Source of the DNA: a virus
Lineage: Duplodnaviria; Heunggongvirae; Uroviricota; Caudoviricetes
Reading direction: 5' to 3' (one strand)
IMG/VR virus record: IMGVR_UViG_2721755676_000001
DNA length: 64,000 nt
In this document: piece by piece, positions 5,995 to 60,938 of the stretch
Position numbering within the stretch: the first letter of the stretch is position 1
How the letters are laid out: each line of letters opens with the position of its first letter
The notes under the pieces: generated by a model
The model's input: the letters and a program-made list of their open reading frames with translations, nothing else
The model's database searches: none
Told to the model about the DNA's origin: nothing
Translations under genes and position numbers: made by a program

Positions 5995-6173
5995 CACTTC
6001 ATCTACACTCGCGGCATTGGAAGCAAAGATATGGTCGTCTGGCACCTGATGCACATTGATAAGGCTATCAACCACACGCTGGAGAAGTTCTTTCCACCAG
6101 CCTGAACACAATGATTGTGCGCCTTATAGCGCCCATTAATATAGATAAGTACTTACCAACAAGGAGAAAACAC

Positions 6174-6449
6174 ATGAAGACTTTGGTTCGCATTTCATCT
6201 AGTACCGACTATGACGTTTACCCGTTGTTCATGATCAAGTGCGACGGGCTGAACGATGAAGAAATTCAAGCGGCAATTGAACGCAATCTAGTTGAATACA
6301 CAGGAATGGATGCGGATTCTATTTATATCGATGATGACGGTGTTTGTTGGCACAACGGTAGCTGCTGGTACGTAGACGACACAATGCTGGTAAGCGATGA
6401 AGACGCGGCCCATCTTGAGCGCATTTTGGGTATCAGCACTTTTGAGTGA
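6174..6449 (+). CDS. Hypothetical small phage-type protein (91 aa from MKTLVRISS)
   Basis: ATG at 6174 preceded by AAGGAGAAAACACATG, the initiation context shared with other early genes in the window. Confidence 0.5.
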   Translation: MKTLVRISSSTDYDVYPLFMIKCDGLNDEEIQAAIERNLVEYTGMDADSIYIDDDGVCWHNGSCWYVDDTMLVSDEDAAHLERILGISTFE

Positions 6450-6489
6450 TATTTACAGCAAAAATATATAAGTTAGCATTTACCTATCG

Positions 6490-6669
6490 TGAAAATTTTA
6501 TTAGATATCACGTTACTTATTATCTCGATAGCCTTTGTGCTCGACTGCATCTTCACAGGGGCAATCCGTAAAGCGCTGGCGCCTGTTAATGATGTGATGA
6601 TCAATGCGCTGGCCGTAGTACTGGTCTTCGACTCAGCATTAGGCGTTTTCAAAGGAGTCGTGGCATGAA
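6490..6669 (+). CDS. Possible small hydrophobic membrane protein (about 59 aa, GTG start)
   Basis: Open frame VKILLDITLLIISIAFVLDCIF...; stop overlaps ATG of next gene (ATGA); below track size cutoff. Confidence 0.3.
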
Positions 6670-7000
6670 GAAAACAGCCCTGGTACTGGCGCTGCTCACT
6701 CTCCCCGTCTTTGCGGACACACATGTCTATGAGTGCGAAATGTTTGTGGTCGAAGCGAAAAACGGCCTGATCCGCAACGCCGTTAAAGCTAATTACGGCG
6801 CGATGGTTGTGGACCGTGGCGAACAGTTTTATGTGGTACGCGATGATCGCGTCCTGTCTTCCCCGTTTCTCACTAAACGTAACGGCGAACTATCTGGCGT
6901 AGGTAAAGATAGGTTCGTTTACAACAAATCGGGTGATGTATACGGCGTTCACGCGAAGAACGACAGCTACCTTTTCGATGACTGCAAGGAGGTTGGGTAA
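6665..7000 (+). CDS. Secreted/periplasmic hypothetical protein with signal peptide
   Basis: N-terminus MKKTALVLALLTLPVFADT; RBS GGAG upstream. Confidence 0.55.
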   Translation: MKKTALVLALLTLPVFADTHVYECEMFVVEAKNGLIRNAVKANYGAMVVDRGEQFYVVRDDRVLSSPFLTKRNGELSGVGKDRFVYNKSGDVYGVHAKNDSYLFDDCKEVG

Positions 7001-7212
7001 TGGCATTAACACTGGCAGGTCTGGAAATCGAGAAAACAAGCGGCTACTGGCGTGCTAAGGGTTTCAAGCAGCCTGGCATTCTTGAGCGTCTGGAACGTGA
7101 AGATGGGTATATCGTCCACCAGCGGCGTGAATGGCGTATGTACGATCCAGAAACAGGAAAACTGACTACAAAAGCCGGAACACTTTGGGGTCTGTTAAAG
7201 AAAATACACTAA
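7000..7212 (+). CDS. Hypothetical small protein (70 aa)
   Basis: Translationally coupled to previous ORF (overlapping stop/start). Confidence 0.4.
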   Translation: MALTLAGLEIEKTSGYWRAKGFKQPGILERLEREDGYIVHQRREWRMYDPETGKLTTKAGTLWGLLKKIH

Positions 7213-7258
7213 ATGCAAACTGACTGCGGCACGTTCCGCAGTCATATTTCATAGTCGT

Positions 7259-7791
7259 CACCGCTGACAGCATACACAATCAACTACCGCTGATAGCATA
7301 TCGAGAGTCTATCTCACCGCTCACAGCATACTTTACTCGATTTTTTACCGCTGACAGCATACTTAAGACATTGCATGAATAATGTGTCCCGGTATGGGTA
7401 TAACCAGAACAAAATTACCGCTGGCAGCATACGAAGGTCTGACATATACCATTAATTACCGCTGATAGCATATCCAAACAAAAATTCCTCAATAAAACAC
7501 CGCTGACAGCATACATTCTATCAGGGAGTAGCAGGCAATAAATGCCTTTCACTACAAGCAATCAGCGCAATAGCAATAGAATGTTAGTGAGCGCAAACCT
7601 ATATGGAATGCACTCTTCGAGGTTAGTAACCACTGGGGAGGTATGGCAGAGCATTGAGTGGTGATAGATGATTTACCGCTCACAGCATACGTTCATCTCA
7701 CTATACCGCTGGTAGCATATCTTTAACCGTTCACAGCATACTTTTCAGAAAAATAGCCGCTGATAGCATACATTTCACCGCTGACAGCATA
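7259..7791. repeat. Iteron array downstream of repA (incA-like), about 12 copies of ACCGCTGACAGCATAC with variants
   Basis: Repeats CCGCTGACAGCATAC / CCGCTGATAGCATAT / CCGCTCACAGCATAC at irregular 20-80 bp spacing. Confidence 0.8.
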
Positions 7792-58758: not shown

Positions 58759-59591
58759 TGGCGCAGATCGACTCGTATCGTAGCGGTGAAGCTGTTTCCC
58801 TTTCATTTGCCTTCAACGTGCTGGATATCGAATCTGCTACCTACACAGTAAAGGACAGCACCGGGGCTATTCTCGTTGATGGCGAGCCGCTAGAAATTAC
58901 CAGCGGTCAAATGTCGATCCCGGTTGTCGTGTCGGCTGAATATAACCAGCTCTCTGAGAAAGAGCGAGATCTGCGGTACGTCATTGTGAAGGCTGTTGCA
59001 TCGGGTCTGACGCATGAAGAGCGGCAAATGTATGTTCTGCTGAATAGTTTTGAACTGTCGATACCAGAACAGTCGTTTGCAACTGTCGCTGATGCTCAAA
59101 TGCAGGCGATCGATATGCTGAATGGGGACACTTTGCTGTCGGATGGTGAAGGCTTAATGCGCAAGCGTCTCATTGAGGCTACCAGACGAATTAAAACTTT
59201 ACCGTTCTCAATCCGCAAAATTCTACGTATCGACTTTGACCGATACGATCGCTCTCAAAATATGCTGAATGTGTATGACATTCCGTGGGGAGCAGATGGA
59301 GCGTACCGGCATGATTTAGTCGATTGGGAAAAGATGACGCAGGAGAAGTTTGAAGAGTTCCCTGACTACTTCAAAGAAGCGTTGATGCTTGCCGTTGTCA
59401 ACGAAGCGTGTGAGATCGCAAATGGCAATGATGTAGCCGCAGCACGAGAGGATGGCATTTTGTCAGAGTCCATCGGTGAAACAACCAACATGTACCGTAC
59501 CGGTAAAGCTGCAAACGTGCATGTGGCTCGTAGTACCTGGCGCTTGCTGGTCAGTTACATCAACAACCGTATGATTGTTCGCCGTGCGTAA
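58758..59591 (+). CDS. Hypothetical head/connector protein (277 aa)
   Basis: Overlapping stop/start with neighbours. Confidence 0.4.
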   Translation: MAQIDSYRSGEAVSLSFAFNVLDIESATYTVKDSTGAILVDGEPLEITSGQMSIPVVVSAEYNQLSEKERDLRYVIVKAVASGLTHEERQMYVLLNSFELSIPEQSFATVADAQMQAIDMLNGDTLLSDGEGLMRKRLIEATRRIKTLPFSIRKILRIDFDRYDRSQNMLNVYDIPWGADGAYRHDLVDWEKMTQEKFEEFPDYFKEALMLAVVNEACEIANGNDVAAAREDGILSESIGETTNMYRTGKAANVHVARSTWRLLVSYINNRMIVRRA

Positions 59592-59670
59592 CGCCAGTCG
59601 CATTATTTACTTTTGGTCGAAAGGTTTTTTGGCCAGTAATGAGAGCGACCGACAACAACAGGGAGAGAGC

Positions 59671-60015
59671 ATGAATATTTCATGGCAAACAGAAATTGCG
59701 ATATACCGATTTGGCGCAAAGAATGTTTACGGCGAGGCGCAATTGCAATTCGTCAGGAAGACGAATGTCGGCGTGGTTAAGTTCGAACAGAGTAATGAGA
59801 AATCGTCAGTTCGTGCTGATAGCTCTGGTAGTCGTGGTAAGGCGAGCCTGGAACTGTTTGATGCTGTGTTAGTTGTCCCTTTGGAAGCGGCTGTACAACT
59901 TGATGATGTACTGATCCTTGAAGGTCAAAAATTAAAGGTGTCCAGTGTTCATCGCCGCTGGGGGCTACGAGGAAGACCAGGGCATCTTGAAGTGGGGGCG
60001 AATATATGGGTCTGA
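59671..60015 (+). CDS. Head-tail adaptor/completion candidate (114 aa from MNISWQ)
   Basis: RBS GGGAGAGAGC before ATG 59671. Confidence 0.4.
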   Translation: MNISWQTEIAIYRFGAKNVYGEAQLQFVRKTNVGVVKFEQSNEKSSVRADSSGSRGKASLELFDAVLVVPLEAAVQLDDVLILEGQKLKVSSVHRRWGLRGRPGHLEVGANIWV

Positions 60016-60479
60016 AATACGATGCGCATCAGTTCAAACGTGCGGGGAATAGACTCAATAACAGCCAGAAAGCATTTAAGCGATATCTTATTCGGGACAT
60101 GGAAAAGCTGGCGCGTTTGGTTGAGCGTCTCAGCCGTGCAATGGCCCCGCTGGAAACCGGATCTCTGGAGACAGCCATCTTTGCCAGGGTGATTAAAGAA
60201 GGTTATTCAGGGCTGCGCATTGAGCTTTCTGTGTCTGGAGCAAAACCACGTCAGGGGCATCCGGGCGTAGAAGTCGGTGACTATGCTAAGTACATGGAGC
60301 TGGGTAAATACCGACTCGGTTATCTTTCTCGAATGAAGAACGTGACAAACCCACCAATTGCCGGTGTTAAACCTCGTGTTGGGCCACACTTTCTGGAAAG
60401 AGCGGTGGAAATTAGCGAGAAGCAGTTCTCAGAAGCGATTCTTGAGGCTGCCAGAAAAGCCGGTTTTACGAGAGGTTAA
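60006..60479 (+). CDS. Hypothetical head-tail joining protein (157 aa)
   Basis: Overlaps previous stop. Confidence 0.4.
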   Translation: MGLKYDAHQFKRAGNRLNNSQKAFKRYLIRDMEKLARLVERLSRAMAPLETGSLETAIFARVIKEGYSGLRIELSVSGAKPRQGHPGVEVGDYAKYMELGKYRLGYLSRMKNVTNPPIAGVKPRVGPHFLERAVEISEKQFSEAILEAARKAGFTRG

Positions 60480-60480
60480 T

Positions 60481-60864
60481 GTGTTTATTGAAGCGTTTGC
60501 AAGTTTGATGCAGAAGGCAAAGATTGGCACGGTCGGGACTGACATTTTCTGTCACTACTTGCCTGCCAATGTGAAATCTGGCGTCCTGCTTATTAACCCA
60601 AATACCGGTATCAGCATCGATCATGAGCTACAGGGCTTTTACCACGAATCATTCACAATAATTGTGCGTGGTTCGTCAATTACTACGACGGTTGAGAAAG
60701 CCAATAAAATCATTGAGATGTTTCCAGTAGAGGAAACGGAATCTGGTGGTGTTTATTTTCGACTGGTACGACCGATGGCGATGCCAATCATTTATCCCAA
60801 AAATGATGGAGCATTAATAGAAGCAGGCATTCCTGTTGAATTTGCTGGCTATTTATTGAATTAG
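60481..60864 (+). CDS. Hypothetical tail completion protein (127 aa, GTG start)
   Basis: GTG at 60481 with RBS GAGAGG directly after previous stop. Confidence 0.4.
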   Translation: MFIEAFASLMQKAKIGTVGTDIFCHYLPANVKSGVLLINPNTGISIDHELQGFYHESFTIIVRGSSITTTVEKANKIIEMFPVEETESGGVYFRLVRPMAMPIIYPKNDGALIEAGIPVEFAGYLLN

Positions 60865-60938
60865 GTTAATCGGTAGGTATATACTTACTGTTAGCGCAAT
60901 GAATGCGTAGAATTAACGGAAAAAGGAGTTTTCCATCA

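Follow-up and report, generated by a model that had tools for sequence, protein, structure and literature searches.

Dispersed copies of a 22-bp palindrome in an SSU5/pHCM2-type phage-plasmid: candidate operators and their putative reader

In bacteriophage P1, a plasmid prophage, the operator of the C1 repressor is present in many scattered copies, which sit at promoters of ssb and of genes for replication, recombination, and regulation (Oref, Omat, Ossb, Oc4, OrepL, and Olpa in the P1 record). A similarly scattered element is described here from another plasmid prophage, represented by IMG/VR virus record IMGVR_UViG_2721755676_000001 (Caudoviricetes), a stretch of 64,000 nucleotides (nt) that is called the window at its full length and that carries a recurrent palindrome of ~22 base pairs (bp). 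P1 operators stand in variable registers relative to the -35 and -10 hexamers, and the copies here would do likewise relative to predicted hexamers. The two systems are set apart by the record's description of the C1 operators as asymmetric, monovalent sites of 17–18 bp, as opposed to a 22-bp palindrome here, and by annotation, in that the candidate repressor of the phage-plasmid is of the XRE type (a sub-threshold match) and is not an annotated relative of C1. Copies of the palindrome also lie inside the head, tail, and lysis operons, which P1 controls indirectly through Lpa. Even with these differences, the C1 operator network would be the nearest functional analogue of the dispersed palindromes.

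Other described systems share parts of this layout. The Lpa late promoters of P1 have a short AAGT/ACTT inverted repeat beside a -10-like hexamer, repeated in front of the late operons of a phage-plasmid. The Lpa box, however, spans 9 bp, its inverted repeat (AAGTNACTT) being centred near -22 and having a central base, whereas the palindrome described here extends over 22 bp around a AAGTACTT core with no central base; moreover, the P1 -10 hexamer lies exactly 4 nt downstream and on one side, whereas here the element is symmetric, the registers vary, and early genes are preceded by copies as well. In the Pant promoter of phage P22, the Arc operator is a ~21-bp palindrome situated in the 17-nt spacer, with its ends contributing to the -35 and -10 hexamers, as is also the case for the window copies at 16346 and 55377. 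The P22 record reads TTGACA-TGATAGAAGCACTCTAC-TATATT, the window has TTGATA and TAACAT at 16346 and TTGAAA and TATGAT at 55377, and the half-site words are alike (ATGATAGAAG versus ATGATAGGTAAG). Unlike the palindrome, however, the Arc operator exists as a single copy; the half-sites here are each ~2 bp longer than those of P22, their spacing is unfit for an Arc tetramer, and no Arc-like protein was identified here. Finally, the IncP plasmid RK2 carries dispersed palindromic OB operators, some of them far from promoters, and encodes a ParB-fold protein, KorB, features that recur in the element described here; in RK2, one global regulator reads the operator set. The OB core is the 13-bp TTTAGCGGCTAAA, and KorB has a proven helix-turn-helix (HTH) and a partner, KorA, whereas the ParB-like protein encoded here has no detectable DNA-binding domain.

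The palindrome and its conservation across a plasmid family

The window matches Escherichia phage CMS-2020a (CP053388.1) with 99.2% identity across 10 kb and phage Cyrano (the same element as plasmid pLF82) with 98.3%; its identity to Salmonella phage SSU5 and Klebsiella phage-plasmids is ~76%. Because of these identities, it is assigned as an SSU5/pHCM2-type phage-plasmid of E. coli, and its gene map is the annotation carried over from Cyrano; the coding share of the window is 87%. Elements of the SSU5/pHCM2/pMT1 type account for roughly 1000 sequenced plasmids from Klebsiella, E. coli, Salmonella Typhi, Yersinia pestis, Enterobacter, and Acinetobacter, and the phage-plasmid literature reports resistance genes on them. 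A literature search returned no description of the motif or of lysis-lysogeny control in elements of this type.

An earlier, sequence-only reading of the window had listed 12 positions bearing a recurrent inverted repeat between genes, and the sequences it quoted are present at all 12 of them, each as a palindrome of ~22 bp. An iterated, symmetric position weight matrix (PWM) yields a consensus with the half-sites AATAGGTAAGT and ACTTACCTATT and AT-rich flanks, and finds 16 non-overlapping window sites of at least 12 bits; counted as scoring positions above 12 bits, 20 are observed as opposed to 0.27 in shuffled sequence. The 18-mer TAGGTAAGTNNTTACCTA with up to three mismatches gives 21 strand-matches (11 sites), where dinucleotide shuffles lead one to expect 0.22. 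As a guard against circularity, a second PWM was trained solely on the sites of Klebsiella plasmid pJN2-26; it recovered the identical 16 window sites (0.1 in shuffles), and shuffling of the AT-rich intergenic DNA alone gave an expectation of 0.21 against 15 observed. The instances thus align into a significant motif, with 16 sites where chance provides 0.1–0.3. Their placement between genes also bears out the earlier description: despite the high coding share, the centre is intergenic in 15 of the 16 sites, so that the motif is not equally frequent in coding DNA, and the exception, at 55377, lies inside the portal gene, within 100 nt of its end. Since each strand of the motif has stop codons in two of its three reading frames, this avoidance of coding regions is partly automatic, which does not explain the excess over chance.

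Matches at 26560 and 51829 are not counted as copies because they lie in hairpins of a different, long family, the AT-rich core of which mimics the motif. The window total is 14 strong copies and one decayed copy, among which those at 21058, 26937, and 55377 are additions to the earlier list. Of the positions on that list, 20924 does carry the quoted sequence, but as a decayed copy of 10 bits that has lost ~4 bp from its centre, and 60871 is present and conserved, but as a spacing variant whose half-site cores stand 6 nt apart instead of 2. The motif is also distinct, as had been proposed, from the AAACAA/TTGTTT palindrome, in that it and the AAACAAnTTGTTT family occupy different gaps. An E. 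coli genome-equivalent has 26 sites, and a whole genome of the SSU5/pHCM2 type is estimated to carry roughly 30 copies.

The same consensus is found at orthologous gaps in SSU5, in pJN2-26, and in a more distant K. michiganensis plasmid. These gaps are the one between ruvC and nrdA, those upstream of thyX and of dam, those after the RNase H and DUF4942 genes, the uvsW–parB and terL–portal gaps, the 3' end of the portal gene, the position after the capsid gene, and the Tc1–tail gap. SSU5 has 26 sites of at least 14 bits, and pJN2-26 has 22 sites in the 100 kb examined. Plasmid p1A9844 of A. baumannii, whose portal is 52% identical, carries ~30–35 mostly intergenic sites built on a distinct but related perfect palindrome, TATTAGTAAGCGCTTACTAATA, which occupies the terL–portal, post-capsid, and uvsW–parB gaps as well. 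The core GTAAG-NN-CTTAC is common to the enterobacterial and Acinetobacter motifs, and the flanks and centre have changed jointly at all sites. This joint change between lineages points to a reader that is encoded by the element and co-evolves with the motif, and not to a host factor; consistent with this, the perfect 20-mer has no exact match in 185,579 representative genomes, giving no sign of host chromosomal sites.

Binding site, promoter, or RNA structure

The base profile of the aligned copies is mirror-symmetric to about ±13 (AAAT-GATAGGTAAGTACTTACCTATC-ATTT), and the arms vary independently, with a weak association of the variable pair at ±7. That sequence and not pairing is conserved argues that a symmetric protein dimer reads the palindrome as double-stranded DNA, and the palindrome is very probably a protein-binding regulatory site on DNA. 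A different account would have the palindromes work as RNA hairpins in polycistronic transcripts, serving in processing, stabilisation, translational control, or termination; it can draw on the many copies that abut stop codons or ribosome-binding sites and on a small advantage in predicted hairpin stability for the + strand over the - strand (-3.8 versus -2.5 kcal/mol). The stems are weak, however (mean -3.8 kcal/mol, with two sites unfolded), A·C mismatches between the arms (66) are nearly as common as G·T mismatches (76), a specific sequence beyond mere pairing is conserved across genera, and the palindrome sites have neither the U-tract that a terminator would need nor a match to any Rfam family. 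A structured RNA element or intrinsic terminator was rejected for its weak folds, balanced mismatches, and lack of an Rfam match, and a function of the palindromes as RNA hairpins is extremely unlikely. Core sites of tyrosine recombinases (lox- or dif-like) were likewise rejected, given that the arms abut around a 0–2-bp centre in place of a 6–8-bp spacer and that there are ~30 copies per genome; copy number, arm spacing, and the variable centre together rule out recombinase sites, iterons, pac sites, and targets of methylation or restriction.

The sequence-only reading had offered a phage promoter class or a factor-binding site as alternatives. No promoter element keeps a constant distance from the palindrome exclusively on the gene side: the TAnnnT hexamer at +8 is present on the gene side of 11/26, 14/26, and 14/22 sites and on the other side of 13/26, 16/26, and 13/22, that is, in 42–64% of sites and equally often in the opposite direction. 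Several sites (6140, 21058, 25897, 48579, and 53870) lie 20–27 nt from a start codon with the Shine-Dalgarno sequence (SD) in between, and a transcript started ~20 nt past the motif would lose the SD, which argues against the motif as a promoter. The terminator hairpins directly after the palindromes at 16346 and 57293 similarly argue against a promoter whose start lies ~20 nt downstream. A self-contained σ70 or alternative promoter was rejected, there being no asymmetric, fixed element; the promoter class as it had been stated finds no support, and the alternative of a factor-binding site is the one that fits a symmetric palindrome kept at orthologous positions across genera.

How such a site might act was approached with a simple σ70 model, by which the best promoter overlapping each site was scored on the gene strand and on the opposite strand, the latter being a fair internal control because the motif is palindromic. 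The σ70-like score was higher on the gene strand in E. coli (7.5 versus 5.9, p = 0.011) and in SSU5 (8.3 versus 6.4, p = 0.003). The -10 positions are scattered relative to the palindrome centre (-14, +2, +8, +11, and +19 to +25) and can be described by different registers: the -10 hexamer may lie just upstream of the palindrome, with the start inside it (6140, 25897, and 48579), the palindrome may occupy the 17-nt spacer between -35 and -10 (16346 and 55377), or the -10 may lie 20–25 nt downstream, with the palindrome over the -35. The hexamers at 16346 and 55377 have been kept in the different lineages, unlike the sequence next to them. Variable registers of this kind resemble the geometry of repressor operators, and with moderate confidence we propose that the palindrome acts as one. 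A dimeric regulator encoded by the phage-plasmid would read the ~22-bp palindrome on double-stranded DNA, and the bound dimer would exclude RNA polymerase, keeping the lytic units silent during plasmid life. The copies head or punctuate nearly all lytic transcription units, whereas the cargo and accessory regions are without them; units with copies include those for recombination and nucleotide metabolism, dam, the parB-like operon, the head and tail genes, and, in relatives, the lysis genes.

Candidate readers of the palindrome

Detectable conservation in Acinetobacter narrows the DNA-binding candidates to five: the CYRAN_45 type, two ParB_N proteins, an 88-amino-acid (88-aa) protein resembling the LexA N-terminal domain (NTD), and TerS. 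CYRAN_45 is an XRE-type HTH protein of 126–128 aa (a sub-threshold HTH match) whose gene adjoins an integrase gene in Cyrano, Klebsiella, and pHCM2; in CP053388.1, the homologue occupies 16152-16535. Its promoter, TTTACA-16-TAATAT, is followed directly by CGGTAAGnACTTACC, an arrangement conserved in E. coli, Klebsiella, and pHCM2; CGGTAAGnACTTACC is the core of the palindrome and lies over the predicted transcription start, which suggests that the repressor gene is autoregulated. In K. michiganensis and Acinetobacter, 2–4 motif-like sites are clustered upstream of the CYRAN_45 homologue. A repressor of this type is present in 994 plasmids of PLSDB and the portal gene in 965, with the same taxon profile; the free phage SSU5 is without the repressor. 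The predicted recognition helix keeps an N-x-N-x-x-S pattern from the Enterobacteria to Acinetobacter, reading NANNLS in the former and NQNMVS in the latter. Expression of the repressor was reported to be 10-fold above background in the LF82 lysogen (PMC9928086). The XRE-family repressor, encoded outside the window, would be the most likely binder, an identification that we advance only tentatively.

Several observations weigh against a network of operators read by this repressor. The gene of the putative binder, the CYRAN_45 homologue, lies outside the window, a search of the PDB with the repressor sequence found no match, and the copy at the repressor promoter comprises only the 14-bp core, scoring 11.5 bits in Cyrano and 16.3 in Klebsiella. 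The repressor is only 56–66% identical among lineages in which the motif is identical, and the promoter of the parB-like operon also bears a site in all four lineages. The free phage SSU5 lacks the repressor, yet has 26 good sites, which would fit a recent deletion and would equally fit another binder that SSU5 has kept. With respect to promoters, the gene-strand bias has the same direction but is not significant in Klebsiella (p = 0.2) and Acinetobacter (p = 0.16), a terminator follows the site at 16346 and at 57293, and many right arms in Acinetobacter read CTTACTATAAT, a perfect -10, so that the arms are asymmetric and hint at a built-in promoter. About one-third of sites lack a convincing σ70-like promoter nearby, e.g. 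53870, 57293, and 32161, which leaves the operator role as a proposal.

An alternative proposal is that the palindromes are activator-dependent lytic promoters of the P1 late type, in which a dimeric activator bound near -20 would replace the -35 and the outer right arm with its flank would serve as the -10 (TATCAT in enterobacteria, TATAAT in Acinetobacter). The proposal is attractive for the likeness of the AAGTACTT core to the P1 arrangement of AAGTNACTT, 4 nt, and a -10; for the TAnnnT that begins at +8 in about half of the sites; and for the Acinetobacter sites, many of which end in CTTACTATAAT, the right arms being more variable than the left. The sites also cover late operons, and classical immunity repressors usually exert no direct control over these. 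Against it stand the equal frequency of TAnnnT at +8 on the non-gene side, the SD that a start at +20 would cost at seven or more sites 20–27 nt from the start codon, a spacing of the AAGT/ACTT halves unlike that of P1, and the copy covering the predicted start of the repressor's own promoter. Nor was an Lpa homologue found by tblastn (best E = 0.9) or with the PHROG Lpa family, which among ten proteins scanned matched P1 Lpa itself and none of the eight candidates from the element. Activation of lytic promoters in this way appears doubtful. A reader of another kind would be the ParB-CTPase-like protein encoded at 48617..49297 (+ strand; Pfam ParB_N, 3e-13), the first gene of the operon headed by the site at 48579, if it loaded on the palindromes in the manner of KorB and slid from there to silence or organise the lytic half, also at a distance. 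KorB uses scattered palindromic operators, and its action reaches as far as 1.5 kb (PMC11790492); many sites here are away from obvious promoters. Two ParB_N proteins are products of an operon whose promoter bears a site in all four lineages, a GGEHRWRA arginine box is present, the nearest solved relatives in the PDB are Spo0J and Noc, and the ParB-like protein has a counterpart of 37% identity in Acinetobacter. Beyond the ParB_N domain, however, the sequence is strongly acidic and no HTH was detected; the AlphaFold2 model, based on a shallow alignment, has a pLDDT (predicted local distance difference test) score of 36 and is unusable, and the C-terminal beta-alpha-alpha pattern is a mere hint of a ribbon-helix-helix fold. 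In addition, the ParB_N proteins of phages are often nucleases or modification enzymes, a separate ParA locus is located elsewhere on the element, and about 30 or more sites are far above typical parS or OB sets, all of which makes a ParB-type reader unlikely.

Rather unlikely, too, is the broader statement that the copies constitute a genome-wide loading array of ~30 sites for a ParB-CTPase-like protein, a phage-plasmid counterpart of KorB, or, alternatively, a symmetric class of activator-dependent promoters for essentially all lytic genes; if either were true, the array or class would be conserved and co-evolving from the Enterobacteria to Acinetobacter. The palindrome might also be read by the 88-aa, winged-helix protein encoded at 51524..51790 (+ strand) or by a host transcription factor. 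An alignment to the LexA DNA-binding domain spans the entire 88-aa protein, which is conserved in Acinetobacter at 33% and whose gene is retained in the SSU5-type gene order; against this, the domain match (E = 0.07) is weak and below threshold, and no motif copy is found directly at the start of its own gene. For a host factor, the co-variation of the motif with the element between Enterobacteria and Acinetobacter and the 0/185,579 representative genomes with the perfect 20-mer are adverse, and a reader from this pair is very unlikely. Other proteins were set aside as well. CYRAN_37 (winged-helix), Cra, and CYRAN_46 are not conserved into Acinetobacter and were rejected as universal binders. 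A FljA-like protein was considered in view of the action of FljA on a 5' untranslated region and was rejected: the E. coli fliC leader has no convincing motif copy, no homologue was found in the 100 kb of Acinetobacter plasmid searched, and the gene has diverged (77% nt identity) between two elements with an identical motif.

Returning to dispersed repressor operators, we consider it an evenly balanced proposition that the motif represents the operators of a temperate element, which are of a known kind, their notable features being the reach into late operons and the co-variation across a clinically widespread family. If so, the operator map would delimit the candidate regulon of a master regulator, provide a testable candidate for that regulator, and constitute the first map of lytic-gene silencing in the SSU5/pHCM2-type family. 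It would also add to P1 a second plasmid prophage whose lytic control proceeds through many dispersed operators, here in a network extending to the late operons. The GTAAG-NN-CTTAC core with lineage-specific flanks would then mark lytic transcription units in any member of the family, a signature of use for annotation, for induction or curing experiments, and for engineering.

Window copies and neighbouring features

In the first third of the window, the copy at 6140..6161 (TATAGATAAGTACTTACCAACA, 23.1 bits) lies directly upstream of the SD AAGGAG and the ATG at 6174 of a small gene, and a σ70-like TTGTGC-16-TAATAT ends at its left edge, placing the predicted start inside the palindrome. The copy at 6467..6488 (TATAAGTTAGCATTTACCTATC, 23.5 bits), in a 39-bp gap, is overlapped by TTTACA-16-TAGCAT (6452-6479) and has orthologues in SSU5 (58073) and Cyrano (59398). 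Between the ASCH and sbcD genes, AATAGGTATATACTTACTTATA (11662..11683, 26.2 bits) corresponds to sites at 63079 in SSU5, 342 in Klebsiella, and 6565 in K. michiganensis. The best copy, GATAGGTAAGTGCTTATCTATT (16346..16367, 28.5 bits), occupies the TTGATA-17-TAACAT spacer between ruvC and nrdA, with a hairpin after it at 16375-16392; SSU5, Klebsiella, and K. michiganensis share this entire arrangement of -35, palindrome, -10, and hairpin. Over 16344-16400, upstream of nrdA, the predicted start falls within the 5' arm of this terminator-like hairpin in four lineages, a layout that could terminate upstream transcripts and pass those started locally. The decayed copy (20920..20941, 10.2 bits), with ~4 bp of its centre missing, is located at the mazG stop codon, where SSU5 (72360) and Klebsiella (9621) have full-length, weak copies.

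Further along, AATGAATAAGTGGTTACTTATC (21058..21079, 21.6 bits) precedes the thyX GTG by 14 nt and comes after a terminator at 20991-21009, and AATAGGTATTTACTTACCTATC (25897..25918, 27.3 bits) is found 10 nt upstream of the dam ATG at 25929, where TTGCCA-17-(TG)AAAAAT (25871-25899) places the predicted start inside the palindrome. Stop codons are overlapped by GATAGATAAGTACAAACTATTC (26937..26958, 17.3 bits; orthologue at SSU5 78708), by AGTAAGTAAGTGTTTACCTATC at the end of the RNase H gene (28110..28131, 25.3 bits, with TATAAT just upstream; orthologues at SSU5 79903 and Klebsiella 16841), and by GATAGGTAAATGCTTACTTAAT at the end of the DUF4942 methylase-like gene (32161..32182, 24.7 bits; orthologues at SSU5 84177 and Klebsiella 20934). 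The copy AATAAGTAAGTGATTACTTAAT (48579..48600, 24.7 bits) lies in the divergent region between uvsW and the parB-like gene, where it overlaps TATTATAAT, and has counterparts in SSU5 (99797), Klebsiella (34778), and Acinetobacter (78870).

Among the head and tail genes, GATAGGTAAGTAATTATCTAAG (53870..53891, 23.6 bits) fills the 26-bp gap between terL and the portal gene, the TAG stop codon of terL being within its left arm and its right arm abutting the portal SD; its orthologues are at 2030 in SSU5, 40579 in Klebsiella, and 86202 in Acinetobacter. Within the 3' end of the portal gene, AATAAGTCAGTACTTACTTATG (55377..55398, 25.5 bits) fits exactly into the spacer of TTGAAA-17-TATGAT, a 10/12 promoter match, and the copy is identical in SSU5 and differs by one base in Klebsiella. 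After the major capsid gene, GGTAGATAAGTAATTATCTATG (57293..57314, 22.9 bits) precedes an intrinsic terminator that starts at 57320, and the same order of palindrome and terminator is found in SSU5, Klebsiella, and Acinetobacter. The spacing variant in the Tc1–tail gap, GTAGG-TATATA-CTTAC (60868..60889, 17.0 bits), keeps its 6-nt spacing as GTAAG-TATATA-CTTAC in Cyrano (9017) and SSU5 (9066) and as GTATG-TATATA-CTTAC in Klebsiella (47135).

The regions at 1-6 kb and 7.8-10.6 kb of the window consist of cargo and replication genes with no counterpart in Cyrano (6-3023, 3902-5425, 5429-5515, 5578-5994, and, on the - strand, 7792-9006 and 9407-10606). They encode HsdR of a type I restriction system, the reverse transcriptase of a group II intron (Rfam match, Intron_gpII), an integrase-core fragment, insertion sequence fragments, a Rep3-type initiator, and an IS91-family transposase. 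The 22-bp palindrome has zero copies in the cargo at 1-6 kb, and the cargo region has neither this family of palindromes nor the AGAAAACAAnTTGTTT family described below. The accessory region includes a gene labelled methionyl-tRNA synthetase from the Cyrano annotation (34865-36898). The FljA-like gene at 44255-44773 (- strand) matches Pfam Flag1_repress (PF03614; FljA, the phase-1 flagellin repressor) over its full length with 230 bits. This gene has 77% nt identity to its Cyrano counterpart, as compared with ~98% for the neighbouring genes, and may be a moron that silences host flagellin. Directly upstream of terS, a five-gene operon at 48617-51790 is kept from E. coli to Acinetobacter; it encodes two ParB_N proteins, an ABC-type ATPase, an ATPase-acetyltransferase fusion, and a small winged-helix-like protein. 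In A. baumannii p1A9844, a sigma-70-family sigma factor is annotated at 24271-24936, after the gene of a MoxR-family ATPase (23002-24246); Cyrano and SSU5 have no annotated sigma factor in that place.

Two other sequence families accompany the palindrome. Copies of AGAAAACAAnTTGTTT are always placed between a GATAAT-like -10, ~10 nt before them, and an SD that follows closely, and are found at 18790, 29009, 29738, 30452, 33360, 36983, 37034, 39530, 40014, 40918, 41682, 51908, and 51933, where they precede nrdB, small accessory genes at 29–42 kb, and, twice, terS; by this constant layout, the family is a predicted promoter-operator cassette of fixed geometry. The long hairpin family that mimics the motif in its core has the form CCTGCTTCTGTATA-(AT-rich palindrome)-TATACGGAAGCAGG followed by a T-run, with copies in the window (26540-26605 and 51810-51875), Cyrano (31160-31225), SSU5 (33455-33520), and Klebsiella (15265-15335). 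The Klebsiella copy carries a compensatory change (TTTCG/CGAAA), and this family is probably a strong terminator.

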